A stretch of DNA of 64,000 nt. Origin: a virus. Its lineage: Duplodnaviria > Caudoviricetes. The notes below the pieces were generated by a model. The model ran no database searches. It saw only the letters and a list, made by a program, of their open reading frames with translations, and was not told the origin of the DNA. The translations under genes and the position numbers were made by a program. The stretch's first letter is position 1. Every line of letters starts with the position of its first letter. This document shows positions 3,995 through 32,293 of the stretch, one piece after another. The stretch covers positions 228 through 64,227 of the IMG/VR virus record IMGVR_UViG_3300042453_004282; one strand, written 5' to 3'.

Positions 3995-6544
3995 ATGGCC
4001 AAATCAGCCTCCACGGATCTGGAACTCATCCAATGTATTGCCTTTGCGGTGAAGGCGTGTAAACAGAAATCGTTCACGGTGCCCACGACGGTATTTCCCA
4101 AGATTGAACGAGTGCGGGGGATGGCCGTTATTGAAGCGCAATTACAGGATAGGAACACGCCCTTTCTCACCTTCGGGGGGATTACGGTGGCGAAGGAACC
4201 GAATGCCGTGGCGGGGATGGGGGCGTCTGAGGCGGATGTGAGCGCCGCGATCACCGCCTCCCGGAATCGGTTCAAAACCGCAGCCGAGAAGTATGTGGCG
4301 CGACCGATTGCGGGGAGACAACCCACGGAGACGGATATTCGAAACGTGTTGGTCTTGGATCCGCAAGCGTATTTCTATGATTTGGTGAATAACTACGCGG
4401 TGGATCTGTCGGATACGTCCTTGCCGAAGCAGCAGGGGGGGTTGGTGTTTTTCTTGGACAAGGACTTGTCCGTACAGGTGACGATTCCCCATGGGTTTCC
4501 CGTGACCGAGAAACTCTTGCAGATCCTGCCGAAGCGGTATCTGCTCTTGAAAGAGTTGCGTGGCGAGGAGTCCGCAGAAGTGGCGGCGCTGACCAAACTG
4601 GAGACGGCTTACAAAAAACTGGTGAAGGCCGAGGAGCGGCTGGAAGAGGCATTAGCCCCACTCCGGAGCATGGGGAGAAAGCCGACAAAGGGGCAAACGG
4701 ACAAGGAAGCAAAGTTGGAGGAGGTGCAGCAACAGATTAAGGAGAATCGACAAGCGGCCACGCCGAAAATGGGGTACATTCGCATCGTCTCCGGGACGCA
4801 GGGGCGGGCAAAGGATTACAGCGCCCTTGTACCCCATCTGCGGCAGAATTTTCCATGGACGCGCATGCTGGGAAGTTATGCGAAGTACAGTCTCTTTCTG
4901 ACGAAGGGGGGAGACAAGATGACGATCCCGGCGACGATCCTCAAGACATGGAACACCGGGAAGCTGTTGAAGCGCGTGGTGGATCTGGAAAATCCGGCAA
5001 AGGACTATGTGATCTATGATCAGTCGAGTCCGTTCACGGAGACCGTGAAAAATGAAGCCCTCGCGCACATCTTGGACAAAATGCAACTCAATGGATTGAA
5101 CGAGGAACTCTTGTCCCCGGTGGACTTGTTTATCGTCAATCGTCGGATGGAACGCGCCATCATGGACGAGATCCAGAAGAAAATCACGAACAACGCGGAT
5201 GTCCTACTGGATTATGTAAACGACACCCCGCAGCAGCCGACGACCTATAAAACCATTCTTCAGCGACATTTTGACGCGGACGATCTGGTCGGGGTTTCGT
5301 TGAAATTGCCAGAAAAGGTTGGATCGGATCCCTTCATGAAAGTGATGGGGGAATATCGCGGGACGGTCTCACAGGATTTGGCGAAAAAAACGGATCCGTT
5401 CACGCGCTTTTTGATGCACCTGATTCCGTCGAAGATGGATGCGATGATTGACGATTTGATCACGATTCAATTCGACAAGTTTGACATTAAACCCCAGAAA
5501 AAATCATGGTCCTACCCGGTCATCTTTAACTATGATACCATGAAGAAATATGGGTTGCAGAATATGCCCTTCAAATTGGAATTCTTCTTGATGACATGGG
5601 ACAAGGCCGGGTTCAACGGCCAATGGGCAAAAAACAACCCGGTGCCGACACCGGGAAACTGGACCGGTGGGTATGGGATGACGGCGGCAAACTTCCTCTT
5701 TTCCATGTATACCGCCTATGACCCGATTGTGAAGGACTTAGCCGCCATCCGGAAAAAGGCGATGGACGAGACGCTCCAGATGCTCCTCCGTACCGGGCAA
5801 GTGTCACCCGCGACGATGAAGATCCCCACCATACAAGCCGCCCAGCGAGAAGCCGAGCGTCTCTTGTCCGCGCCCCGTATTATTGGTCGATTTAAGGGGG
5901 ACGATTCCCCCCCGATCCTGCGTTTCACCCGGTTGGTGGAAGACGCGCAGTTGCGGGACATGGTGACGCGCATCGCGGCGCTGGAAGCCGAGGAAGCCAT
6001 GCTAGAGCGGGAACCCGCAAAAAACCCCGTGACCACCCGGCGCAAGAGTGAAGTGAAAACCTTGCTCAAAGACCTGAGAGCCCAGAGAAATAAATCACAA
6101 ACGAATCGCGGATCTGAAAGCAATACGGATCGCATCTATACGCTCTATCAGGTCCGTGTCATTGAACGCCTCTTGAGCGAATTGGATACCAGTAAGGCGG
6201 GGAAATGGACGGAATTTTTGCGTCAAGAAAATCAACCGCCTCGAAAGGACGGCCCTTTTGCGCGGAAGAGCGTCTTGGAATATATTGACGCACATTATAT
6301 CGCGGTCCAGTTTTCATGGTTCCTGCTTCGGGGAGGACGGTCCCAACATCTGGCCCTGAAGAAGAAGTTATTCTTGTCCGTATTCGGTCTCATCACGAAA
6401 TCTGGGTATAAGTCCTTTGAGACCTTCACCGATGCGGCGGGAAATCTCCAGACGAAAGACATTCTCCGGGTCGCGGTCATCACCCCGGATCAAAAACGCG
6501 CCTATGCGACCTTCAGTAACGCCCCGTATGTGATGTTCTCATAG
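3995..6544 (+). CDS. Large hypothetical protein (849 aa), possibly nuclease-like or internal virion protein
   Basis: Long ORF with coiled-coil segments and an SPVDLF...LVGVSLK motif; function not established. Confidence 0.8.
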   Translation: MAKSASTDLELIQCIAFAVKACKQKSFTVPTTVFPKIERVRGMAVIEAQLQDRNTPFLTFGGITVAKEPNAVAGMGASEADVSAAITASRNRFKTAAEKYVARPIAGRQPTETDIRNVLVLDPQAYFYDLVNNYAVDLSDTSLPKQQGGLVFFLDKDLSVQVTIPHGFPVTEKLLQILPKRYLLLKELRGEESAEVAALTKLETAYKKLVKAEERLEEALAPLRSMGRKPTKGQTDKEAKLEEVQQQIKENRQAATPKMGYIRIVSGTQGRAKDYSALVPHLRQNFPWTRMLGSYAKYSLFLTKGGDKMTIPATILKTWNTGKLLKRVVDLENPAKDYVIYDQSSPFTETVKNEALAHILDKMQLNGLNEELLSPVDLFIVNRRMERAIMDEIQKKITNNADVLLDYVNDTPQQPTTYKTILQRHFDADDLVGVSLKLPEKVGSDPFMKVMGEYRGTVSQDLAKKTDPFTRFLMHLIPSKMDAMIDDLITIQFDKFDIKPQKKSWSYPVIFNYDTMKKYGLQNMPFKLEFFLMTWDKAGFNGQWAKNNPVPTPGNWTGGYGMTAANFLFSMYTAYDPIVKDLAAIRKKAMDETLQMLLRTGQVSPATMKIPTIQAAQREAERLLSAPRIIGRFKGDDSPPILRFTRLVEDAQLRDMVTRIAALEAEEAMLEREPAKNPVTTRRKSEVKTLLKDLRAQRNKSQTNRGSESNTDRIYTLYQVRVIERLLSELDTSKAGKWTEFLRQENQPPRKDGPFARKSVLEYIDAHYIAVQFSWFLLRGGRSQHLALKKKLFLSVFGLITKSGYKSFETFTDAAGNLQTKDILRVAVITPDQKRAYATFSNAPYVMFS

Positions 6545-6600: not shown

Positions 6601-7668
6601 GTGTTTGGTATGGTGAAGGCAGTTGATATTGTGGTGGATTTGCAAGCCGGGGATACGGGAAAAGGAAAAGTCACCCACCATCTCCTCAACACCGCGACGG
6701 AGCCGTATACCGCCGTCTGTCGTTTCAATGGAGGAGGAAATGCAGGACACACGATCTATCATCACGGAAAGAAATATGTTACCCACCAAGTGCCATCAGG
6801 TATATTTTTTGGGGTTCCTTGTGTTCTTGGCCTTGGGTGTGTGGTAAATCCCCAAGCACTGGCGGATGAAGTTCGTGCGTTGCGGGAAGACGGCTTCACC
6901 GCTCCCGTGTATGTGGATCGACGTGCCCATGTAACCCGTGCCACCCACGTGGAGACCGACCGAAAGGATAGCGCGCATCTCGGGACAACGGGGCAAGGAG
7001 TCGGTCCCACGATGATGGACAAATACGGACGCACCGGGTTGCGTATGGAGCAGTGGGGGCTAGATGCCTCCGTGTTTCGCCAACTTGATATTTCCGTGAT
7101 TGATACTTTTGAGATGTTTCACACGGAATTCACGCCACACACCGTGCTATGTGAAGGGGCACAAGGCTTTCAGTTGGATGTGGATTGGGGAGATTACCCC
7201 TATGTAACCAGTTCCCATTGCACCAGCGGGGCGGTCGCCCTCAACGGCTTTCCTCCGTCCCGATGGAGAAAGGTGTATGGCGTGATGAAGCCGTATGAAA
7301 CCTATTCGGGATTCAAGTTGTTCAACGCCCGCGTGGATATGGAAACTACCTATGCCGCACTACAGACACTGGGGGGAGAAATCGGCGCGACGACGGGACG
7401 GCGGCGGCAAGTGCGCAGTTTGCATTTAGATGATGTCATTCGTGCCATTTATGTGAATGATGTAACCGATGTGATCATCAACAAGATTGATATCATGGAG
7501 GCCGCACACACGGCTGGATATACGAAGGTATACCAGTACAAGCATAATTTCCTGTGGTGGGCCTATGAGACTCGACAGGATTTTGTGGATGCGGTGACGC
7601 GAACCCTTCGGTTGGAGTGTCCCTATCTGCGCACGATCACATGGTCAGATTCCCCCCATGCGGTATAG
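6601..7668 (+). CDS. purA: Adenylosuccinate synthetase
   Basis: GDTGKGK, GGGNAGHT, GTTGQGVGP, EGAQG, YPYVTSS, GATTGRRR and NKID motifs; start may be ATG 6610. Confidence 0.9.
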   Translation: MFGMVKAVDIVVDLQAGDTGKGKVTHHLLNTATEPYTAVCRFNGGGNAGHTIYHHGKKYVTHQVPSGIFFGVPCVLGLGCVVNPQALADEVRALREDGFTAPVYVDRRAHVTRATHVETDRKDSAHLGTTGQGVGPTMMDKYGRTGLRMEQWGLDASVFRQLDISVIDTFEMFHTEFTPHTVLCEGAQGFQLDVDWGDYPYVTSSHCTSGAVALNGFPPSRWRKVYGVMKPYETYSGFKLFNARVDMETTYAALQTLGGEIGATTGRRRQVRSLHLDDVIRAIYVNDVTDVIINKIDIMEAAHTAGYTKVYQYKHNFLWWAYETRQDFVDAVTRTLRLECPYLRTITWSDSPHAV

Positions 7669-9295: not shown

Positions 9296-9815
9296 CCTTG
9301 GCCCCGCAGATAGCACCCTGAAGATTGTTCAGCGACTGCTTCCGGTGCAAACACGACAACGAGACACTACCCGGAACGACATCGTCATTCATAACGATGG
9401 GATGAATCTGTCGGCAACAACCGTACATTCTGCATTGAGACATTCACGCCTCTCCTATCATTTTTTTGTGGATAGAAGCGGTCGCGTGTTTCAATTCATG
9501 TCACTGGATCGTGTGGCAGAACATGCTGGGAGATCCAAACATCTGAATACCAAGCAGTGGAATGACTTCAGCATAGGCATCTGTCTGCAAGGATCAAACT
9601 TCGTCGGCTACACCAAGGCGCAGTACGCGAGCTTGAACAAATTGATCCGCAACCTTACTCTGCGGTATAAACACCTCGGCCCCATTCATGTGGTAGGGCA
9701 CAACGAGGTGGCCTATCCGAAAGGACGAAAGTCAGACCCCGGAAAACACTTTGACTGGAAACAACTCCATTATGGCATACGCACCGTACCACAAGCGGCT
9801 CGACGCCGACATTAA
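9258..9815 (+). CDS. N-acetylmuramoyl-L-alanine amidase (Amidase_2) with hydrophobic N-terminus
   Basis: IVIH, SYHF, AEHAG, SIGICL, VVGH...KSDPG motifs. Confidence 0.85.
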   Translation: MILPLLFLLAQSSLGPADSTLKIVQRLLPVQTRQRDTTRNDIVIHNDGMNLSATTVHSALRHSRLSYHFFVDRSGRVFQFMSLDRVAEHAGRSKHLNTKQWNDFSIGICLQGSNFVGYTKAQYASLNKLIRNLTLRYKHLGPIHVVGHNEVAYPKGRKSDPGKHFDWKQLHYGIRTVPQAARRRH

Positions 9816-10860
9816 GCTGGATTTTGATGATGTATTGATGGTTCCACAACCAACCGATATTACATCGCGCAGTGAAGTGAATCTCGTGGCAAATATTTCC
9901 GGCGTCACAAAGAAGACGATTACGGGAGTGCCAATTATTGCGGCCAACATGGATGGAGTGGGAACATTCAGCATGAATGCCGCACTCGCCAAGCATCGTA
10001 TCTTCACGGCGATCACGAAGCATACCACGGTGAACGAGTGGAAAACGATGTTAGAAGCCTATTATCATGATGTGGATCCTATGCTCAATCCTCTACGCTA
10101 TGCCTGTGTCAGTATTGGCATGGGTGAAGACAACGTGGCATATCTTCGTGAGATTGACATGGCGATGTATGATTATGAAATCACCTCGCCGCTAAAAGTC
10201 GTGATTGATGTGGCAAACGGACATATGAAAAAGTTTGCTGCATTTGTGCAGCGCGTCAGAGATGCCTTTCCACATGCCTTCATTATGGCTGGAACGGTGG
10301 CCACACCAGACGCCACGGAACAATTGCTTCTTCATGGCGCAGATTTAGTGCGCGTTGGCATCGGAACTGGCGCCGTATGCACCACTCGTCGTGTCTCTGG
10401 TGTTGGGTATCCTCAATTTTCCGCTGTGATGGAGTGCGCGGAGGTTGCTGATGCGCATGGCGGGGGTATTATCTCGGATGGAGGGTGTGTGCATCCCGGA
10501 GATTTTGCAAAAGCGTTGGGTGCAGGGGCAAAAATGGTGATGGCTGGAAGTATTTTTGCCGGTCACACCCAATCCGAACAGGAAGTTGATGGCGGATGTG
10601 TCACATTTTATGGTATGAGTTCACACGCGGCGCAAGAAAAGCACGGAGAAGTACGAAATTATCGGTCTTCCGAGGGACGAGTAGTTAAAATTCCGTATAA
10701 AGGCGATGTAAACCTGACGGTTTTGGACATTTTGGGAGGAATTCGGTCTGCTTGTGCGTATGTCGGGGCAAGAAACCTGCAAGATATCGACAAATATGCA
10801 AGATTTGTGCGGGTAAACCATCAACTGAACCAAAGTTTGGACGCATACACGATTTCTTGA
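9772..10860 (+). CDS. guaC: GMP reductase
   Basis: KLDFDDVL, IIAANMDGVG, IDVANG, VGIGTGAVCTTR, GYPQFSA, DGGC, FYGMSS, YRSSEG and GGIRSACAYVGA motifs. Confidence 0.92.
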   Translation: MAYAPYHKRLDADIKLDFDDVLMVPQPTDITSRSEVNLVANISGVTKKTITGVPIIAANMDGVGTFSMNAALAKHRIFTAITKHTTVNEWKTMLEAYYHDVDPMLNPLRYACVSIGMGEDNVAYLREIDMAMYDYEITSPLKVVIDVANGHMKKFAAFVQRVRDAFPHAFIMAGTVATPDATEQLLLHGADLVRVGIGTGAVCTTRRVSGVGYPQFSAVMECAEVADAHGGGIISDGGCVHPGDFAKALGAGAKMVMAGSIFAGHTQSEQEVDGGCVTFYGMSSHAAQEKHGEVRNYRSSEGRVVKIPYKGDVNLTVLDILGGIRSACAYVGARNLQDIDKYARFVRVNHQLNQSLDAYTIS

Positions 10861-13703: not shown

Positions 13704-14285
13704 ATGACCACCATCGAAGCGTATCAAATTTATTTGGCAGTACGTCTTCATTTCACAAACAAAAAGTACGACATCACCCACACGAAAGGACGAGTGCGTG
13801 TCGTTCCGGGGCAGCTTGAAAACAAACCTCGCATGAAGTACAGTCTGGAAAAGATGTCCGTGCGGTTTCCCCGTAAGAAGTTCATCAACTTTCTCGTCGC
13901 GAGTTTTGCAAGGGGAGAAAACCCGCTGTTTTCACCGAATGCGGAAACAAACTATCAACAGTTTGTGAAGTACATGGAGGGGATGTCATACTTTTATGAA
14001 CGGGATCTGCGCCAGCTTCAAACCTCCTGTGACTGCACCGAGGTAGAGGCATTGTGGAGTGGAGAGAACCACCCCGTCATCCTCAAAGAATATCTTGGTG
14101 GGCGTATCCATTTAGAGACATTGATCATTTTGGATCGGCTCTTTAAGTTCTCCACCATATTGAATGAGCGTCTATCCGGTGACGCCGTGTGGGAACCGCT
14201 GTATGAAGTCATGTATAAATACTTGCTGTTCATTAAATTTGACGAGGACAAAGTCAGGATGATTACGCGAAAGGTGTTTGCATGA
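13704..14285 (+). CDS. gp59: Helicase loader gp59
   Basis: AYQIYLAVRLHF, HPVILKEYLGG.I.LETL motifs; between gp33 and gp32. Confidence 0.85.
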   Translation: MTTIEAYQIYLAVRLHFTNKKYDITHTKGRVRVVPGQLENKPRMKYSLEKMSVRFPRKKFINFLVASFARGENPLFSPNAETNYQQFVKYMEGMSYFYERDLRQLQTSCDCTEVEALWSGENHPVILKEYLGGRIHLETLIILDRLFKFSTILNERLSGDAVWEPLYEVMYKYLLFIKFDEDKVRMITRKVFA

Positions 14286-14500: not shown

Positions 14501-15403
14501 ATGACATCGCGATTCTCAGATTTACGCAACAACAGCACGAACTTCGATTCCCTGCGCAAGCAGGTAGAAGACATGTCAAAGACTACCTACGAGAAGGACG
14601 ACACCAGATTCTGGCAGCCCACCGTAGACAAGGCGGGGAACGGATATGCGGTGATTCGCTTCCTTCCGCCACCGAAGGGTGAGACTCTCGCATGGGCGCG
14701 GGTATGGAACCATGGGTTTCAGGGTCCGTCTGGGCGCTGGTACATCGAAAACAGCCTCACCACGATTAACCAGTCTGACCCGGTCAGTGAACTGAATTCA
14801 GAGCTTTGGAATTCTGGCATTGAGTCAAACAAGGACATTGCTCGTGCTCAGAAGCGCCGCCTGAACTACATCTCCAACATTATGGTGATCAAGGATCAGG
14901 CCAATCCGGAAAACAACGGCAAGGTCTTCCTCTTCAAGTATGGGAAGAAGATCTTCGACAAGATTAAGCAAGCGATGAACCCGGAATTTGATGTTGACGA
15001 GCCGATCAATCCGTTTGACTTCTGGAATGGTGCAAACTTCCGCATGAAGATCCGAAAGGTTGAAGGCTACCGGAACTATGATTTGTCTGTCTTTGAATCA
15101 CCCTCACCGATTGCAGACAACGATGAGATCATGGAAGAGATCTGGAACCAGCAGCACTCACTTGCTACCTTCACCGATCCAAAGAACTTCAAGACATATG
15201 AGGAGTTGAAGGCCAAGCTGGATCAGGTACTTCGCGGAGCAAAGCGTCCGGTTACTGCCGATTCCATTGACGAGGATGATGCGGTAGACGCTCCGTCAAT
15301 GAAGTCATCCCCGGAACAGAAGAAGCCCACGGCTTCAAGTTCCTTTGAAGAGGAAGATGATGATGACGCCGTGAGCTACTTCGAGAAGCTCTCTCGCGAA
15401 TAA
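14501..15403 (+). CDS. gp32: Single-stranded DNA-binding protein gp32
   Basis: DKAGNGYAVIRFLP, WYIENSLTT, KYGKKIFDKI, acidic tail ending YFEKL. Confidence 0.95.
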   Translation: MTSRFSDLRNNSTNFDSLRKQVEDMSKTTYEKDDTRFWQPTVDKAGNGYAVIRFLPPPKGETLAWARVWNHGFQGPSGRWYIENSLTTINQSDPVSELNSELWNSGIESNKDIARAQKRRLNYISNIMVIKDQANPENNGKVFLFKYGKKIFDKIKQAMNPEFDVDEPINPFDFWNGANFRMKIRKVEGYRNYDLSVFESPSPIADNDEIMEEIWNQQHSLATFTDPKNFKTYEELKAKLDQVLRGAKRPVTADSIDEDDAVDAPSMKSSPEQKKPTASSSFEEEDDDDAVSYFEKLSRE

Positions 15404-15411
15404 TGCGCAAG

Positions 15412-15442
15412 AAAACGGGGAAGATTTCTCTTCCCCGTTTTT
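15412..15442. terminator. Bidirectional rho-independent terminator
   Basis: AAAACGGGGAAGA-tttc-TCTTCCCCGTTTT between convergent genes. Confidence 0.85.
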
Positions 15443-16035
15443 TATTTGATGTCAGTGGATTCTATTAAGGTGTAGGTGAAACTGTTGCTCACGGCTTCCG
15501 CCTTCTTCATGATTTGCATGAACTGTTCAAAGTGCCTGATATTGGAAAACACTTGACACCCAGCACTCCACCCGTCAACCTGCACGGACACGCCGTTTGG
15601 TGATGAACGGTGAATGTTGATGCCGTACATTCCCTCATCAATGGTCTTCTCATCATAAGTCGTGTCCATGTTTGCATCACGATACACCTTAACTGGCGTA
15701 TTCTGCACGAGCGCCGTGTATTTTCCTTGATGTAGGCCAATTCGATGCGACCGGCGATATTGACCGGGGACAAGACGCGCCACGCCTCTAGGATTCAATA
15801 GTTTTCGCGTCATATAAGTTGTACCCGGATCTGTCGTGCATGGCCAAATATGAAAATTCCACACGCCAGAAACCTTATAGGACAGGGTCATCCAATCATC
15901 AAACTGATTAGTGAGTCGCTTTCCAGTGGCTGAATTTCTTACACCTACGATGTTTACGTCATAGTCCTTGTTGCTATCGAACCATACGTATGCTTTTGCC
16001 TTAACAGCAGCTTCAATTTGTTGTCTAGTAAACAT
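15442..16035 (-). CDS. Putative murein-active enzyme (L,D-transpeptidase-like H...SAGC motif)
   Basis: GINIH...WSAGCQV motif; family assignment tentative. Confidence 0.5.
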   Translation of the reverse strand: MFTRQQIEAAVKAKAYVWFDSNKDYDVNIVGVRNSATGKRLTNQFDDWMTLSYKVSGVWNFHIWPCTTDPGTTYMTRKLLNPRGVARLVPGQYRRSHRIGLHQGKYTALVQNTPVKVYRDANMDTTYDEKTIDEGMYGINIHRSSPNGVSVQVDGWSAGCQVFSNIRHFEQFMQIMKKAEAVSNSFTYTLIESTDIK

Positions 16036-16037
16036 GG

Positions 16038-17951
16038 TTATATCCTCGCGACACGTTTGTCTTGGAATCGTACAAAACTGTTTTCTGCACTACGAATGCT
16101 TGAATGGGGTACGGCTGTGGGTTGCATCATTTGAGGCCGCGTCTGTGGTACGGGAAGATTTGCTACTAACGACGGAGACGCTGGCGGCGGCACAGGCGGC
16201 ATCGTTTCGCGTTCTGCACTAGTCTCCAGTGCATCTGCGACTGACATATCTCTGGCCATCAATCCTGCATCAATTGCAACACTCGCCGCCGTACCAAACC
16301 CCGGAAGGGTTGATGCTGCCCCAGAAGCAATCTCTGCGGTCGCTCCTAGCATGTCTCCTGCGAGCATACGTTCGACGCCAAGGCCCAAACCAACTGCGGC
16401 CCCAACGATTGGTAGCTTTTTCAACGCGGCCTTTCCTAATCCTTTTGCCGCAACTTTAGCGCCTCCCTTGGCAGCGGCCCCCTTGCCAAAGAGATCAAGT
16501 TGATCGGTTGCTTTTTTGCCAGCACCTCTACCTCCTACTGACGCCTTTCCGGGGCCACGTTTGCGTTTTCCACCTTTCCCCGACGCCGAAGTGCCACCGA
16601 ATAAATCTAGTTGCGATGAAGAGCTTTCCTCTTCTCGCTTCTCCGTATCCTTCGTGATTACTTCCGTCAAGGCTTCAATTTTTTGTGCCACCTCAGTTTG
16701 TGCCTTTGTGTTGTCTTTCAGTGCAGCCTCTACTGGCGCCGCTTCGCCGCCAGAAAACATATCAGTCTGTTCTGGGGACGCTTGAAAGCTTCCATACTTT
16801 TTCTGTCTGGGGGATCGCTTTCTTTTCTTGGACGGAGTCACTGGGTTGCCAAAAAGATCCACATCCCCTTCCGTTGCTGGCTGATCGGTGAAAAGATCCA
16901 ACTGCGGGACGGCTGGAGAGGCCACAGAGGCTGCCGAGGCGGCTGGAGAGGCCACAGAGGCTGCCGAGGCGGCTGAGGCGGCTGGAGAGGTCGTAGAGGC
17001 TGCTGCCGGTGAGGCGGCAGCCGTCATTATCTTCGGCGGGTTGAACAGGCTATACTGCGCCGGGTCTCCTGCCGCCGGAATCGGCTTGGGAGCAAGGGTT
17101 TGCCCCTTGAATAGGTCAAGTTGCTCAAAAGTCGGCTGCGCAGCCGGTGGGGCGGCTGGTTCTGGTTTCTTGAACAGATTTTTGATGATCCCGCCAATTG
17201 ACATGCTTGTCTTTTTCTTTTCCACCAATTCGTCCAAGGATTTTCCTTCTGGGGACACGCGACCAAACATGGCGTCTGCTACACCACGCACTCCACCCGA
17301 GGCCACACCCTTGGCGGTGCGCTTGACCATCCCCCCGAAAGATTCCCCTTCTTCTTGCTTCCAGCGCACCCCCGGAAATACTAGGCGCAAATCTGACATC
17401 ACATCCTTTTTCAAATTACCAAGCAACACTTCCTTCGCAGACCTATCTGGCTTCGTATTCGGCCCAGTGTCCATCTGGCGCGCTTCTTTGATAACAGTCT
17501 CTCGAATCTCCTTTTCCTTTTCAAGCTTTTCAATATCCTTTTCTAGCTTGTCAATGGTCTTCTGCTTGACTTCTTTTTCAAGTTTGAAGTCAGCTTTCGT
17601 TGTTTCGATTTCTGTCTTATACCGTTCGATTTCCTGTTGAAGCGCCTCACCTTCGACTTCATTCTTTGCTACCAACTCAGCCAGCAGATTACGAATTTCC
17701 CTGCGCTCTTTCTCCGTTGACCGGTCGCTCTCTGCAATTTTTTGCAGGGTGGTCAGCATCTTCTGGAAAATGAACTTCTGGTCGTCATCAATCGTTAATT
17801 GCCCATCCACACTGACGGTATCCAACGCAGAAGAAATTTTTCCTGCCATAGCTTTGCTATAGTCAAGATTCTTCATGCTGTTGAGTTCAGCAGAATTTCC
17901 GGAAATTGCCTGTTGAATGCCTAACGCAATATCGTCTTTGGTGGGATTCAT
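16038..17951 (-). CDS. Tape-measure-like (gp29-position) protein with repeated QLDLF motifs
   Basis: Coiled-coil N-half, Ala/Pro-rich middle, Gly/Ala hydrophobic segment (KKLPIVGAAVGLGLG...); directly downstream of gp26/gp51. Confidence 0.6.
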   Translation of the reverse strand: MNPTKDDIALGIQQAISGNSAELNSMKNLDYSKAMAGKISSALDTVSVDGQLTIDDDQKFIFQKMLTTLQKIAESDRSTEKERREIRNLLAELVAKNEVEGEALQQEIERYKTEIETTKADFKLEKEVKQKTIDKLEKDIEKLEKEKEIRETVIKEARQMDTGPNTKPDRSAKEVLLGNLKKDVMSDLRLVFPGVRWKQEEGESFGGMVKRTAKGVASGGVRGVADAMFGRVSPEGKSLDELVEKKKTSMSIGGIIKNLFKKPEPAAPPAAQPTFEQLDLFKGQTLAPKPIPAAGDPAQYSLFNPPKIMTAAASPAAASTTSPAASAASAASVASPAASAASVASPAVPQLDLFTDQPATEGDVDLFGNPVTPSKKRKRSPRQKKYGSFQASPEQTDMFSGGEAAPVEAALKDNTKAQTEVAQKIEALTEVITKDTEKREEESSSSQLDLFGGTSASGKGGKRKRGPGKASVGGRGAGKKATDQLDLFGKGAAAKGGAKVAAKGLGKAALKKLPIVGAAVGLGLGVERMLAGDMLGATAEIASGAASTLPGFGTAASVAIDAGLMARDMSVADALETSAERETMPPVPPPASPSLVANLPVPQTRPQMMQPTAVPHSSIRSAENSFVRFQDKRVARI

Positions 17952-17957
17952 GGTCGA

Positions 17958-18098
17958 TTACTTTTGGGTTTTCTTTTCAATGTAACGCATTAACAGCCCT
18001 ACATACACATCTCTTTCCCATGGCATCATGTGTTCCAATTCATTCAAGGAGTATTTGTGTTCTTGCATGAGGATGAAATTGACACGATAGTATTGCAT
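17958..18098 (-). CDS. gp51: Baseplate hub assembly chaperone gp51 (below ORF-track size cutoff)
   Basis: MQYYRVNFILMQEHKYSLNELEHMMPWERDVYVGLL...; frame stays open upstream to the gp26 slippery site. Confidence 0.85.
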   Translation of the reverse strand: MQYYRVNFILMQEHKYSLNELEHMMPWERDVYVGLLMRYIEKKTQK

Positions 18099-18118: not shown

Positions 18119-18820
18119 TTAGACGAAAAAATTGGCGATGTCTTCCAAGGTGAGAGTGTTACTCGTTGAGCACTTCGCGCACTCATAGTTGATGCGGTGT
18201 GTAATCTTTGGCATTGTCACGAAAAACTCTCTCAGTTTCTCAAACTGCTCAGAGGTGAGCGTATCAATGAACTGCACAAAGTCTTCCACAGGCGTACTCT
18301 GGTCGTCAAATACCTCATCTTGGGAATACACCGTGTGAATGCATTCAGCCACGACCCGATAGATCTCTTCAATTGACGCGGTGCGCGTGGACAGCAGTCC
18401 CAAATGCTTCAGCTTCGGGTATTTCATGTCCACCCGCAAGGTGTCGCTCAGGTCAATCGTAGCGCGATGCGCAGGATTTTGGTCAATGACGACATTATTC
18501 ACATTCAAGGTACTCGGTGTTGCGTGTTTACAATTCCCACAGACCAAGGTGAACTCCATCTCTTCGCTGACAGACTTCCCTCGAATTTGCAAAAAGATGT
18601 ACTGTACATCCACCATCGAATGTGATTCACACGACACCACATTCGAAGTACACGCTCGCACGGAGGTGTCAATCGCATGTATAATGTCAGCCGGGTCGTC
18701 ACTTTCTGCGGCCATTAACAACACTTTTTCTTCTTTCATGATAAAGGGACGGAACTGCACTTGCTGCTTGCTGACCGGAAGGGTGACCGAGAAGGTCGGC
18801 AGGGTGTTTAGATTGTGCAT
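18119..18820 (-). CDS. gp26: Baseplate hub assembly protein gp26
   Basis: FRPF..KEEK.LL, YIFLQIRGKSVSE, CxxC pairs, ends NFFV. Confidence 0.9.
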   Translation of the reverse strand: MHNLNTLPTFSVTLPVSKQQVQFRPFIMKEEKVLLMAAESDDPADIIHAIDTSVRACTSNVVSCESHSMVDVQYIFLQIRGKSVSEEMEFTLVCGNCKHATPSTLNVNNVVIDQNPAHRATIDLSDTLRVDMKYPKLKHLGLLSTRTASIEEIYRVVAECIHTVYSQDEVFDDQSTPVEDFVQFIDTLTSEQFEKLREFFVTMPKITHRINYECAKCSTSNTLTLEDIANFFV

Positions 18821-24530: not shown

Positions 24531-25013
24531 ATGATGAACAATCTGTATGGACATAGTGGGTTTTACTGGTTTATGGGCGTGGTGGAAGACAGAAACGATC
24601 CCCTGAAAATGGGAAGATGTCGTGTACGAATCGCCGCCTATCACACCTCAGACAAAACGGTACTTCCTACGGCAGATTTGCCGTGGGCGATGCCCTTGCT
24701 GCCGATCACTTCGGCATCTGTGTCTGGTGTAGGCCATTCTCCGATTGGTCCCGTGGAAGGCACATGGGTGTTGGGCTTCTTCATAGACGGAGAAGATGCG
24801 CAGATTCCCATCATGCTTGGAACCTTCCCCGGACGCGCAGAACCAATCAATCTCACCTCGTTGGTTTCTCAGTTGGCGTCTGCGCTAACGGCGCCGCTTA
24901 TTTTGCCGGATACTGGCCTTTCGGCAACAGCAGTGCCAACGATCAACGCCGTCGAAACATTTGAAGCGAAGCAGCAGAGCCGTCTACAAGCTGATGTGAC
25001 ACAGGAGCCCTAA
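24531..25013 (+). CDS. gp5: gp5 N-terminal OB-fold domain as a stand-alone ORF
   Basis: WFMGVVEDRNDPLKMGRCRVRI...LPWA...GTWVLGFFIDG...P.MLG. Confidence 0.85.
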   Translation: MMNNLYGHSGFYWFMGVVEDRNDPLKMGRCRVRIAAYHTSDKTVLPTADLPWAMPLLPITSASVSGVGHSPIGPVEGTWVLGFFIDGEDAQIPIMLGTFPGRAEPINLTSLVSQLASALTAPLILPDTGLSATAVPTINAVETFEAKQQSRLQADVTQEP

Positions 25014-27934
25014 TGTCTGACAATCGATTCATTATCAATGAGGTTCGTCGAAACCTGCCGGGTGTGCCGATTGAGAGCTTGCAAACACTCATCGACTCAT
25101 CAAGCACACTCAAATCATTGGTAGACAGTGGGTTCACGGGATACTTGACCCCTGTGCAAATTCGGCAAATCGTGACGGAAGTTCAGAGTGCTCAACGAAA
25201 ATTTGTGGATCGGCAGACGCTCATCCAGACACTGGAGAACATCAAGAACAATAGCTTCTTTGTCACTCCGGTAGAAGCTCAACTGGCAAGTGAGACGGAG
25301 AACTACGAAGATATTCCACTGACCAACACTACGCTACTCTCTACGTTGGATGGGGATCTTTTTTATGATCCTGAAGCAGAAGCGTTTGTCTTGGCTCCTA
25401 CACCCAATGTCAGGATAGAGGCTCCTGAGACGAGCCCCGAGGGGTATGTTGGGCCGTTGGATCCCACGGATGTTGACAACTTACTGTTGCTCTTGGAAGA
25501 TGAAATCCGACAGGAATACGAGGCGCAGGGGGAACCCCATGCGCTGGATACGATCACGGAGTCTGGTAGAATCGGTGTATTTGGATTGACCGTAGATGAT
25601 CTTGTCGAGATTGGTGTGGTCAGTCAAAATGCCATCAACGACTGGGCTGCTATCCCTGAAGACGAACACGATGACTATGGAGAGGAGGCGGTAAAACAGG
25701 GTCTTATCAGCCGAGAACGGTATGACACCCTGTCAGAAATAGTTCGCACGAGTTTGATGTTGTATGTGGTAACAAATCAAAACTATTGGATCCAGAAAGC
25801 GATTGGCCCAAAGGCGTTCTTGACCTTACGTGAAATTCAACGCGCCTTGGCATTCAAGGCACAGATTAAAGACTGGAAAGGGTTGTATCAGTTCCTTTCC
25901 GGTCAACTGAATCTGTTTGCGATGACTTTGATTGACCGGAAGTCTGTTGTTGCCGCAAATATGATTCTTCAGCGCCTCTTTGGAAAAAACGCCGTCAAGT
26001 TATATGGATATGTTGGTCTCTTGGCGAACCCCATAGGACGCAAGGCGAAGGATGTGTACAATACGGTCTATCGTGGTATCCAAACACGATTGGTGACGAA
26101 AGACATCGCGCAACTGAAGGCTGCTTTGAACAAGCTACCGACTCCTCCGGTGCCGTCAGTTCGCCCATCCAGAAAATTCAAGCTCTTCCCTAACATCAAT
26201 CAACAGAAAACGAATGAAGCGTTTGTTCGAGTTCCTGACACACAGGGATTCTATGACCCAAATCGTGTGTATCCCAGAGTGCATGCGATGGGAGAAGCCG
26301 ACACAAACCGCCTCGCTCGTGCAGAAAAAATCAAAGATACGATTGTTGGCACGAAAGACGAAAACCGAACGCTGGATATTCCTGTCGCACGAGGAGCGTC
26401 TCCGAAAAAGTGGAGTCAACCAAAGTCTCCCTACAATGCCAAGTACCCGCACAATCATGTCTATGAATCGGAGTCTGGGCATGTCATGGAATATGATGAC
26501 ACACCAGACAATGAGCGAGTGCATTTGTATCACCGCGAAGGTTCATTTCTTGAAATCGACAGAAATGGCACATGGACTAGAAAGGTTGTAGGAGACGCCT
26601 ATGAGATTTATGAGCGAAATGGATACATCTACATCGCAGGAAAGGCGAACATCACGATTGATGGAAATTGCAATGTCTATGTGAAAAACAATGTCAATCT
26701 TCAAGTCGATGGTAATCTCGTTGCTGATGTGCATAAAAACATGACATGGAACATCGCCAAAGATCTAAAAATCACGGCGGGTGGTGCCATTCATGTAAAG
26801 TCAAAAAAGCAAACGAACATCGAATCCACGGACGGCAGCATCAACATCAAGGCCAAAAATGCCGTTAATACCAACGGGTCGAACGTGAATGTTCGTGCGG
26901 AAAAAACTCTCAAGCTATCTGGAGAGTTGAAGGCTTCCCTTGCTTCGCCAAAAGGGGCTGCTATGGTATTGGCTGGTCTTTCTCCCGTAGTAATCAATGG
27001 CCCCGTGTTAAGCATGCTTCCTCAACCGGGATTTGCGGCACAGATTCTTGCCTCTCAGAATGCGGCTGGAAAGGCTGATGCTTCGGAGAGTGGCGCGCCA
27101 CCACGACAGAAGAATCCAGTGGAACCGGTGTTTCCTCCGCTGGTCCTCGAAAGCAGAATAGACGATTTTTCCGAAGCGTTGTCCACCTTGTCAGAAAACC
27201 CGGACGAAAACCAGAATGAGATTAATGTCCTCAAGAAGAAAGCCATTGATGAAGGGTTGTTAACCAAAGAGGAATTTGACCGACCCCTAACCATGGGAGC
27301 GCAAGACACCTCCATTCCTCCGTCACCAACTCCACCGAAAGTGGCATCGTGTGCGGCTATTTACGGACAAACGCGCTTTTCCCCAACATACAGTCTTTCA
27401 AAAAATGTGACGCTTGGTCTATTAAAGGGCACTGATCGGCTGGCACAGCAGCACGGTCTGTCTCAACAAGACTTGGTCTGTAACCTCAAACAACTTGCAG
27501 AAAACGTGCTTGAGCCTGTTTTTTCGTCTTTTGGAAAGGATCAGGTAATTGTGACCTCGTGTTTTAGATGGCCGGGATACAATACCGGTTCATTCAAACC
27601 GGCAACGGGAATCTCCTTCCATGAACAAGGATTAGCCGTGGATTTGTGCTTTGTCAACAAGCCATTTTCTATGTACTATGATTTTGCCAAACAGATAAAG
27701 CAAACCATGAATTATGACAAACTCTTGTTGGAATATCGTCTGGGCACCGTTAACGGGGTCACCACCTATAAGCCATGGATCCATGTGCAGTGGCAACAAC
27801 CCGCCATTAATTTGGCGAATGGACGAAAGGGTGGCCCACCGAGAAAAGAAGTCTACACGATGAAAAACGATGTCCGGGTGGGACCAGCAAATGCTCTGAT
27901 TAACCTTCTCCCGAATGTCAATCTGAGCTACTAA
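25013..27934 (+). CDS. gp5: gp5 C-terminal part: beta-helix needle plus peptidase M15-like domain
   Basis: YPHNHVYESESGH..EYDDTP..ER..LYHR.G, VxG-type beta-helix repeats, then S.FR...S.H..G.AVD...WIHV. Confidence 0.8.
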   Translation: MSDNRFIINEVRRNLPGVPIESLQTLIDSSSTLKSLVDSGFTGYLTPVQIRQIVTEVQSAQRKFVDRQTLIQTLENIKNNSFFVTPVEAQLASETENYEDIPLTNTTLLSTLDGDLFYDPEAEAFVLAPTPNVRIEAPETSPEGYVGPLDPTDVDNLLLLLEDEIRQEYEAQGEPHALDTITESGRIGVFGLTVDDLVEIGVVSQNAINDWAAIPEDEHDDYGEEAVKQGLISRERYDTLSEIVRTSLMLYVVTNQNYWIQKAIGPKAFLTLREIQRALAFKAQIKDWKGLYQFLSGQLNLFAMTLIDRKSVVAANMILQRLFGKNAVKLYGYVGLLANPIGRKAKDVYNTVYRGIQTRLVTKDIAQLKAALNKLPTPPVPSVRPSRKFKLFPNINQQKTNEAFVRVPDTQGFYDPNRVYPRVHAMGEADTNRLARAEKIKDTIVGTKDENRTLDIPVARGASPKKWSQPKSPYNAKYPHNHVYESESGHVMEYDDTPDNERVHLYHREGSFLEIDRNGTWTRKVVGDAYEIYERNGYIYIAGKANITIDGNCNVYVKNNVNLQVDGNLVADVHKNMTWNIAKDLKITAGGAIHVKSKKQTNIESTDGSINIKAKNAVNTNGSNVNVRAEKTLKLSGELKASLASPKGAAMVLAGLSPVVINGPVLSMLPQPGFAAQILASQNAAGKADASESGAPPRQKNPVEPVFPPLVLESRIDDFSEALSTLSENPDENQNEINVLKKKAIDEGLLTKEEFDRPLTMGAQDTSIPPSPTPPKVASCAAIYGQTRFSPTYSLSKNVTLGLLKGTDRLAQQHGLSQQDLVCNLKQLAENVLEPVFSSFGKDQVIVTSCFRWPGYNTGSFKPATGISFHEQGLAVDLCFVNKPFSMYYDFAKQIKQTMNYDKLLLEYRLGTVNGVTTYKPWIHVQWQQPAINLANGRKGGPPRKEVYTMKNDVRVGPANALINLLPNVNLSY

Positions 27935-31846: not shown

Positions 31847-32293
31847 ATGCAAGAGTCGCTTTTTGTTCAGGGAACCCTCCATATTACGCTGCGAGATGAG
31901 AATGGCAATATTCTGGTCGAGCGGATCCACAAGAATCTTGTAGTGTCGCTGGGTTTGGCGCATATGGCGGCTCGCCTCGTTGGCAACACCCCAGCCGTGA
32001 TGAGCCATATGGAACTTGGCACCGGGACAACGGTCGTCACATCAGGAGACACGGCATTAGCGTCCCGAATTGTGGACTCCAGAACGGCTTTAGCTGCATT
32101 TACTTCCACAGACTCAACAATCACGGCTGAGTGTGAATTTGGCCCCGGAATTGGATCCGGCCCCGTGTCGGAGGCTGGAATCTTTAACGCAGCGTCAAGC
32201 GGCACGATGCTTTGCCGCAGCGTCTTTCCTGTTATCAACAAGTCGGCGCTAGATACACTAACGATCCAGTGGTACATTACCCTCTCTGCATAA
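31847..32293 (+). CDS. Baseplate/tail structural protein
   Basis: AAGGAG RBS; NLVV..G...EAGIFNA..GTML.R.VF.VINK...D.L.I.W pattern. Confidence 0.7.
   Translation: MQESLFVQGTLHITLRDENGNILVERIHKNLVVSLGLAHMAARLVGNTPAVMSHMELGTGTTVVTSGDTALASRIVDSRTALAAFTSTDSTITAECEFGPGIGSGPVSEAGIFNAASSGTMLCRSVFPVINKSALDTLTIQWYITLSA

Follow-up and report, generated by a model that had tools for sequence, protein, structure and literature searches.

A tape-measure-like protein of a T4-like phage with an array of bacterial clamp-binding motifs in its linker: a candidate device for capturing host clamps on entry

Bacteriophages are already known to exploit or block the sliding clamp of their hosts (the beta clamp, DnaN) by means of proteins made in the cell, as with MuC of phage Mu and Gp168 of phage Twort. 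Natural clamp-binding motifs are reported to follow the pattern Q-aliphatic-x-[L/M]-[F/L], with the consensus QL[S/D]LF, and QLDLF is given as the strongest pentapeptide, in which the Gln adds affinity, position 2 is tolerant and the Phe is required (PMC11139829). MuC is described as binding Escherichia coli DnaN via QHDLF and QPDLF, the consensus of its family being Qx[D/E][L/M]F, and its overproduction as lethal through the clamp (PMC12867686). Tail proteins that enter the cell have been described separately. T4 gp29, reported at six copies per virion, has a coiled coil adjoining the genome end, then a Pro-rich stretch, a membrane segment and a C-terminal loop that sits at the hub, the remainder of the chain being translocated with the genome (10.64898/2026.03.06.709160), and in the tape-measure-fused RNA polymerase of P23-45 the N-terminal part of the tape measure is reported to act in the cytoplasm (PMC10770324). 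The present account concerns a 637-residue protein encoded on the minus strand of a 64,000-nucleotide stretch of viral DNA (Duplodnaviria; Caudoviricetes; positions 228 to 64,227 of the IMG/VR virus record IMGVR_UViG_3300042453_004282), hereafter the window, which is nearly all of a 64,227-base virus contig with a CheckV completeness of 38%. The reading proposed, held with evenly balanced confidence, is that this is an ejected tail-lumen protein of a T4-like myovirus, the linker of which would be a multivalent DnaN-binding array capturing host clamps on entry. That the motifs bind host DnaN at all, be it on entry or late in the cytoplasm of the producing cell, is likely.

All seven motifs that a sequence-only reading had listed for this DNA were located in the open reading frame (ORF) at 16038-17951 (-), within a linker of 247 residues that bears out its description as an Ala/Pro/Lys-rich, low-complexity region (A 46, K 26, G 24, P 23 and S 23 of 247). 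The protein, its parts as modelled with AlphaFold2 (AF2) and the motifs are as follows, with amino-acid (aa) positions.

16038..17951, minus strand: 637-aa putative tail-lumen (tape-measure-like) protein with the motif array (ORF call)
17172..17951, minus strand: N-terminal helical/coiled-coil domain, aa 1-260 (AF2: helices 5-260)
16431..17171, minus strand: Ala/Pro/Lys/Gly/Ser-rich linker, aa 261-507, mostly predicted disordered (AF2 and composition)
17109..17123, minus strand: QLDLF, aa 277-281 (motif search)
17043..17057, minus strand: QYSLF, aa 299-303 (motif search)
16890..16904, minus strand: QLDLF, aa 350-354 (motif search)
16851..16862, minus strand: VDLF, aa 364-367, the sole copy without Gln (motif search)
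16755..16769, minus strand: QTDMF, aa 395-399 (motif search)
16599..16613, minus strand: QLDLF, aa 447-451 (motif search; modelled in the cleft of DnaN copy 1)
16488..16502, minus strand: QLDLF, aa 484-488 (motif search; modelled in the cleft of DnaN copy 2)
16209..16430, minus strand: Gly-zipper hydrophobic module, aa 508-581 (AF2 helices 514-581; hydrophobicity)
16041..16085, minus strand: conserved C-terminal peptide ENSFVRFQDKRVARI, aa 623-637 (alignment A1)

The four QLDLF copies are written in four different codon sets, just as had been quoted, and stand in unrelated flanks; repeats at the DNA level are confined to an Ala/Ser/Pro tract at 16910-17003, and the motif copies are alike in the motif alone. 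The low complexity of the linker, together with this true DNA tandem repeat, is what would recommend the view that the motifs are a by-product of repetitive Ala/Pro-rich sequence. From composition, however, merely 0.00025 QLDLF and 0.085 Q..[LM]F would be expected per protein; even one QLDLF arose in only 4 of 20,000 shuffles, and six or more Q..[LM]F in none of 20,000. The shuffles, the unshared flanks and differing codons, and the retention of the motifs in orthologs at 28-43% identity refute an origin by chance, the probability of which is negligible, and support the earlier claim that selection acts on the peptide. Between aa 276 and 551 every Phe ends a motif, F389 excepted. As a background, 139 proteins (97,885 aa) that share the C-terminal module only contain Qx[DS][LM]F three times in total, with Gln leading 3 of their 47 [DS][LM]F; elsewhere in the called ORFs of the window the sole match is MQESLF, at the start of the ORF at 31847-32293.

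Set against the published definition (PMC11139829), with which the QL[S/D]LF consensus invoked by the sequence-only reading agrees, the four QLDLF copies fit, QYSLF and QTDMF fit save at the tolerant position 2, and VDLF is without the Gln. Judged from sequence, the consensus of the tail protein is the bacterial clamp-binding motif, position by position, and among the matches listed for 'QLDLF' in the literature all concern the bacterial beta clamp. The suggested structure prediction of the peptides with DnaN was carried out on aa 440-495, which hold two QLDLF 37 residues apart, together with two DnaN chains from E. coli, which stood in for the clamp of the host. The fold scored 0.66 against 0.03 for the best of three controls, a level that solved complexes attained in 51 of 78 cases and mismatched pairs in 2 of 108; between runs at least 72% of the contacts were shared, and the partner reached a predicted local distance difference test (pLDDT) value of at least 52. 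In the model, aa 444-451 and 481-488 place one motif on each protomer and touch DnaN residues 172, 174-177, 242, 247, 275, 278, 280, 320, 344, 346, 360 and 362-366, which belong to the canonical hydrophobic cleft between domains II and III, in both protomers. What this predicted complex shows is likeness and the geometric feasibility of bivalent binding.

The motifs recur in all of the close orthologs. P0006, P0009, P0010/P0276 and P0041, at the identities given above, each carry two to three Qx[DS][LM]F in linkers that are otherwise unalignable. A tally of 21 [DS][LM]F instances from six motif-bearing proteins (P0276 being a near-duplicate of P0010) gave Gln at -4 in 19/21, Asp (18/21) or Ser (3/21) at -2, Leu (16/21) or Met (5/21) at -1 and Phe in 21/21, with position -3 variable (L, T, M, V, Y, A) and the flanks patternless. 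In a tree of 14 sequences the motif-less P0011, P0012, P0016, L003, L004, L011 and L015 form one well-supported clade, the motif-bearers make up three deep lineages outside it, and P0017, also motif-less, sits on a long branch at the root of the drawing. The tree left out P0004 (99% identical to the query), the fragments P0007/P0008, P0018, L005-L008 (which match as L004 does), L009/L010 (like P0041), L012 (like P0010, truncated) and the fragments L013/L014/L016. Motif counts in orthologs, which the sequence-only reading had put forward as a check, came out in its favour for the motif-bearing lineages and against it for the seven-member clade.

Fourteen IMG/VR loci were retrieved by an alignment-based scan, the pattern being the C-terminal peptide ENSFVRFQDKRVARI; L009, L010 and L012 carry motifs, L003-L008, L011 and L015 carry none, and L013/L014/L016 are C-terminal fragments. 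Single-protein IMG/VR scans with the tail protein and with gp26 returned nothing, word-index searches with the whole protein and the N-terminal domain returned only its own cluster, P0005, P0010 and P0276, and the linker by itself matched nothing in the phage collection by tblastn at E 10. Other features of these linkers may be recorded here. In the motif-less clade (L003, L004, L011, L015, P0011) the linker holds one conserved peptide, R-T-[SA]-G-[TR]-G-L-[FY]-[ST]-K-[DN]-E-L-N-[EQ]-Q-L-x-L-S, which may be another docking peptide. At 16788-16829 (-), aa 375-388, a basic cluster followed by KKYGSF..SP.QT, present also in P0006 (RKKKYGSFIDSPIQT), stands just before QTDMF and is a second conserved linker element. 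The shortest motif-bearing ortholog (P0041 / L010:8523-9989, 486-488 aa) is without the Gly-zipper and has instead a G-rich stretch, '...LSPGEFVMNA...', of a kind presumed to occur in other tape measures.

The architecture of the protein was modelled with AF2 from nine sequences (mean pLDDT 55). Block means of 85-94 were obtained over aa 61-160 of the N-terminal domain, against 31-45 over aa 261-410 and 451-510 in the linker, where disorder is predicted at 261-411 and 448-507 and a single helix at 408-447. Five of the motifs lie in sequence with pLDDT 31-45, and the other two flank or follow this helix, again in low-confidence sequence; the linker also contains two basic clusters, KKRKR (aa 375-379) and KRKR (aa 462-465). 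The stretch of aa 508-581, the most hydrophobic of the protein (maximum Kyte-Doolittle 1.5) and rich in Gly/Ala, is likely the membrane-active part. The C-terminal tail is disordered in the model, and its last 15 residues hardly vary across the family, with N624, S625, F626, R628, Q630, K632 and R633 as invariant columns of alignment A1.

Similarity searches were dominated by the Gly-zipper module, through which nearly all of 1744 relatives at E<=0.001 (exhaustive profile search) were found; the N-terminal domain is common to P0006, P0007, P0009, P0010, P0012, P0016 and P0041. PHROG matches were restricted to aa 458-590 (families named peptidase or endolysin), plus a weak tail-associated-lysin match at aa 79-251, and no Pfam family was found for the protein at E 0.01. 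Among nine long proteins with the C-terminal module, Pfam named a domain in two only (Peptidase_M23 and SLT), located after the module. The whole protein gave tblastn matches confined to the Gly-zipper module, in 18 Synechococcus phage records, and a cyanophage protein of 969-971 aa has the same module with a fused lysin-like C-terminal part in the same place after gp26. Matches in the ESM Atlas, with every score <0.9 and structural TM <=0.26, serve only as leads: the nearest clusters carry PF13488 Gly-zipper_Omp, and a PF25671 T4_Tape_measure cluster at 0.81 stayed under the level that counts.

It is gene position and architecture, not homology, that make a tail-lumen, tape-measure-like protein of it by analogy, and a virion location plausible. 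The gene order gp4, gp2, gp54-like tube, gp26, gp51-like gene and tail protein is found both here and in L010; L012, which is truncated on the 5' side, agrees as far as it goes (tail gene, then gp32 and gp59), and the cyanophage records are syntenic around the gene. The domain order of coiled coil, Pro-rich linker, membrane segment and C-terminal peptide is that of T4 gp29, minus the gp29 helical bundle.

On the proposed reading, tail contraction would be followed by the exit of the conserved C-terminal end from the tube, and the Gly-zipper module would go into, or open, the inner membrane. Next, linker and N-terminal coiled coil, the parts adjoining the DNA end, would be threaded into the cytoplasm ahead of the genome, where the Qx[D/S][L/M]F peptides, which include four copies of the optimal QLDLF, could fill the clefts of clamp dimers, neighbouring motifs being able to fill both clefts of one dimer. 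Clamps would in this way capture and tether the incoming chain, so that threading might become irreversible and the genome end be held at clamp-loaded host DNA, and clamp clients (Pol III, Hda, repair proteins and translesion polymerases) could be displaced locally. The virion location, the entry of the linker into the cytoplasm and the binding with its effect are all steps that we infer; the basic clusters of the linker fit a DNA-proximal role.

Several considerations weigh against this proposal. Complexes of the E. coli clamp with such peptides have already been solved, so that the passing score of the DnaN fold, obtained with a stand-in clamp, may be memory and is taken as likeness, not binding. 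Qx[DS][LM]F is absent from the seven-member sister clade, P0017, the cyanophage homologs and T4 gp29; because the whole sister clade and the cyanophage homologs do without the motifs, the trait is accessory and dispensable, not part of the core tail mechanism. In ten full-length near-identical variants (the 90% cluster of the query), 18 of 20 variable columns fall in the linker and none in the motifs, which is consistent with constraint and weak alone, about 2.5 motif columns being expected by chance, with a P of none of ~0.07. Homology to T4 gp29 was not detectable (hhalign of A1, probability 0.6%), hhalign gave no relationship to T4 gp51 either, and no Pfam tape-measure family applies, so that the sequence-only description as tape-measure-like stands by position and architecture and not by detectable homology. 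Insertion of the two Gly-zipper helices as a hairpin could keep the linker on the side of the periplasm or the tube. With six copies as in T4, a virion would bring ~42 motifs, few for titrating the clamps of an E. coli cell, which number in the hundreds; for this reason we favour a tether or ratchet that works where the DNA enters and competes locally with clamp clients, and of the two roles first suggested, sponge or tether, the global sponge is the less likely. Lastly, the docking motif of T4-type phages is also acidic-x-L-F, this phage's own gp43, gp33, gp55 and gp45 lie off the contig, and cross-binding to gp45 may occur.

The last of these points leads to the distinctly unlikely alternative that the partner of the motifs is gp45, the PCNA-like clamp of the phage, with the binding perhaps coupling tail-protein production to late transcription or replication, or titrating gp45 late in infection. 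T4-like phages encode gp45, and G001, a 124-kb relative of the motif-less clade, has both gp43 and gp45; its polymerase tail (...IATLDDLF) has an acidic residue and a terminal L-F as in QLDLF, and late-type NATAAATA promoters precede gp4 and gp2 in the operon of the tail gene, so that the protein would be made when gp45 is abundant. Neither gp43 nor gp45 was found on the 64-kb contig or on the contigs of the motif-bearing relative G003, and gp33 and gp55 were likewise not found on the former. Polymerases for comparison accordingly come from relatives of the motif-less clade and not from this phage: P0156-P0275, 120 gp43 relatives of L017:472-2982, finish almost uniformly with [ST]-L-[DE]-x-L-F, after which no more than one residue follows (one sequence is cut short), and by inspection of 66 distinct tails Leu is usual at -4 and Gln occurs there in none. 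These tails are presumably gp45-binding; the T4 gp45 partners are reported to use LDFL at their C-termini (PMC9690074). In the tail proteins, by contrast, the motifs are internal and multiple instead of terminal and single, have Gln at -4 as tallied above with -3 variable, and differ in register and first residue, and none of the six frames of the window contains [ST]L[DE]x[LM]F; sequestering gp45 would, moreover, be expected to oppose late transcription. As far as sequences can tell, the comparison of motifs favours the host clamp.

Two other alternatives concern the partner and the time of action. Docking on something other than a clamp is unlikely; here a tail-assembly partner (a gp51-like protein, gp26, the tube lumen or the tube cap), a membrane or periplasmic factor, or a processing site would be recognised, and the clamp likeness would be convergent. 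Tape measures do need chaperones and touch the tube, and the neighbours of the gene include two for assembly, gp26 and the gp51-like one; the linker may also remain outside the cytoplasm altogether, and clamp binding is a prediction. Yet the Gln, the tolerant position 2, D/S, L/M and the invariant Phe reproduce the clamp motif throughout, four copies are the optimal QLDLF, and gp26, the gp51-like gene and the tube in the same synteny are present in the motif-less clade, where the motifs are absent; we know of no phage protease or chaperone of such specificity, no search aimed at one having been made. Very unlikely, in turn, is that the newly made protein binds DnaN in the producing cell and shuts off clamp-dependent host replication and repair, the virion copies being irrelevant. 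Late expression would supply far more motif copies than one virion, and MuC, with two such motifs, is reported to be lethal via the clamp when overproduced (PMC12867686). A late structural protein is nevertheless a poor site for host shut-off, and its membrane-active module would be expected to endanger the producing cell. Phages usually place host shut-off among their early genes. The position of the motifs in what, by analogy with T4, is the DNA-end-proximal part fits delivery instead.

Capture of host clamps on entry, if it occurs, need not be confined to this lineage. IMG/VR scans for tandem QLDLF with three codon-restricted patterns (which miss most codon choices, did not recover L009/L010 and allow no frequency to be derived) gave seven stretches, two of them in long ORFs of unrelated viral contigs: a frame of >3,864 aa at L029:1-11592 (-), with LPD13, LPD3, ART-PolyVal, InPase and Zeta_toxin domains, and a 963-aa ART-PolyVal protein at L031:2603-5491 (-). 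Both have a QLDLF pair in an inter-domain linker, the one pair being QLDLF-GNP-QLDLF and the other two QLDLFSQP 23 residues apart. L027, L028, L030, L032 and L033 are frames of 11-56 codons and were not taken as genes (L030 is cut by the locus end and the second motif of L033 is out of frame). Polyvalent proteins presumably enter the cell with the DNA. The two found here are unrelated to the 637-aa protein, in which Pfam detected no LPD or effector domains and which accordingly falls outside the large-polyvalent-protein class. Among the matches listed in a search of titles and abstracts, no publication was found that describes clamp-binding motifs for tape measures or for polyvalent proteins. 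It may tentatively be supposed, and is doubtful, that the host clamp is a general landing pad for phage-injected proteins and that consensus clamp-binding peptides in disordered linkers are a recurrent, undescribed device of T4-like tail-lumen and ART-PolyVal proteins. Clamp rings would then be gripped as the chain emerges, ratcheting chain and genome end inward, and incoming DNA with its escort proteins could be parked on clamp-loaded host DNA.

Should the proposal hold, a clamp-gripping array injected with the DNA would act before any phage gene expression, genome entry would be tied to the host replication machinery, and the cytoplasmic role of the tape-measure portion that is ejected would become open to simple experiments. 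With its four copies of the natural peptide that binds the clamp cleft most tightly of those known, the protein is also a natural template for clamp-directed inhibitors, and if the device proves common in tape measures and polyvalent proteins, it would represent an overlooked general rule of phage entry.

The window has the gene content of a T4-like myovirus (PHROG and Pfam scans). Since its gp6 is merely 32-36% identical to that of the nearest cultured phages, the hosts of which are Synechococcus, Methylophilales, Pelagibacter and Caulobacter, the phage is, on this sequence evidence, of an uncultured aquatic lineage; megablast of 6 kb matched only a 56-nt piece of gp32. The neighbours of the tail gene and the late-promoter sites are as follows.

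13704-14285, plus strand: gp59 (PHROG/Pfam)
14501-15403, plus strand: gp32 (PHROG/Pfam)
15442..16035, minus strand: 197-aa peptidase/lysin-like gene (phrog_3000, E 2.8e-36; phrog_33083 'endolysin', E 1.4e-12)
17958..18098, minus strand: 46-aa gp51-like ORF between gp26 and the tail protein (phrog_634 'baseplate hub assembly catalyst', E 6e-19)
18119..18820, minus strand: gp26-like baseplate hub gene, upstream of the tail protein in the same operon (PF12322, E 1.1e-53; phrog_150)
14214, 20886, 27941, 31817, 40182, 43487, 44440, 47791, 48387, 54645 and 54675, plus strand: TATAAATA late-promoter sites (consensus search)

The 197-aa gene begins 2 nt past the stop of the tail protein. The 46-aa ORF aligns to the last third of phrog_634 (gp51) and has a second match, to the C-terminal end of the gp26 profile, phrog_150 (E 1.7e-4); gp26 and the gp51-like piece seem, from these alignments, to be fused in some phages, which bears on a separate note of a gp26-gp51 frameshift. 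Beyond gp26 the minus strand holds the gp54-like tube protein, gp2 and gp4, after which the plus strand carries gp48, gp53, the phrog_350 tail protein, a split gp5, gp25, gp6 and gp7-like genes; in the split gp5-like hub/lysozyme protein a 160-aa N-terminal gene at 24531-25013 (+) abuts a 973-aa gene at 25013-27934 (+). The T4 late-promoter consensus TATAAATA occurs 11 times in the window, all on the plus strand, against 0.85 expected, and the minus strand has only the NATAAATA variants upstream of gp4 and gp2. Plus-strand ORFs at 16516-16785, 16683-16976 and 16888-17640 were set aside as antisense frames, the minus-strand product having relatives at E 1e-94. In the early region an 849-aa ORF at 3995-6544 (+) has no PHROG match. 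In the region of 6601-7668 (+) and 9751-10860 (+) an adenylosuccinate-synthetase-like gene, a candidate PurA or PurZ, matches phrog_1211 (E 2e-63), a family named for the 2-aminoadenine-genome enzyme, and a 'dehydrogenase', phrog_9582, lies near it.

Comparison with the systems already described shows both likenesses and differences. The Mu MuC/Mor activators share with it the Qx[D/E][L/M]F type of motif, and are reported to bind E. coli DnaN with clamp-dependent toxicity; as described, however, MuC is a small folded intracellular transcription factor with motifs at both ends, which uses the clamp to activate late promoters (PMC12867686), whereas the tail protein has seven motifs in a mostly disordered linker and no sequence relationship to MuC. 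Gp168 of Staphylococcus phage Twort likewise acts on the beta clamp of its host, bringing replication to a halt, but it is reported as a small early, non-virion protein that plugs the DNA channel of the clamp and not the peptide cleft, with no motif array (PMC8565349; PMC11139829). T4-type gp43/gp33/gp55 tails are, according to PMC9690074, short acidic-hydrophobic clamp-docking peptides ending in L-F, but there is one per protein, at the extreme C-terminus, of the form [ST]L[DE]xLF or LDFL and without Gln.

T4 gp29 is close in length (590 against 637 aa), has its gene among hub and tube genes and shows the same domain order (10.64898/2026.03.06.709160); it differs in the helical bundle after the membrane segment, which the 637-aa protein does not have, and in being without Qx[DS][LM]F. 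In gp96 of Thermus phage P23-45, a tape measure joined to a virion RNA polymerase, the N-terminal part is reported to be active in the cytoplasm right after injection (PMC10770324), its cargo being a folded enzyme, whereas that of the tail protein would be short docking peptides for a host protein. The synthetic QLDLF inhibitors, finally, use the same pentapeptide, described as the tightest known cleft binder and as competitive (PMC11139829); they are man-made single peptides that fail at cell entry, whereas the tail protein carries the peptide naturally, in four copies, and may have it delivered by the tail.

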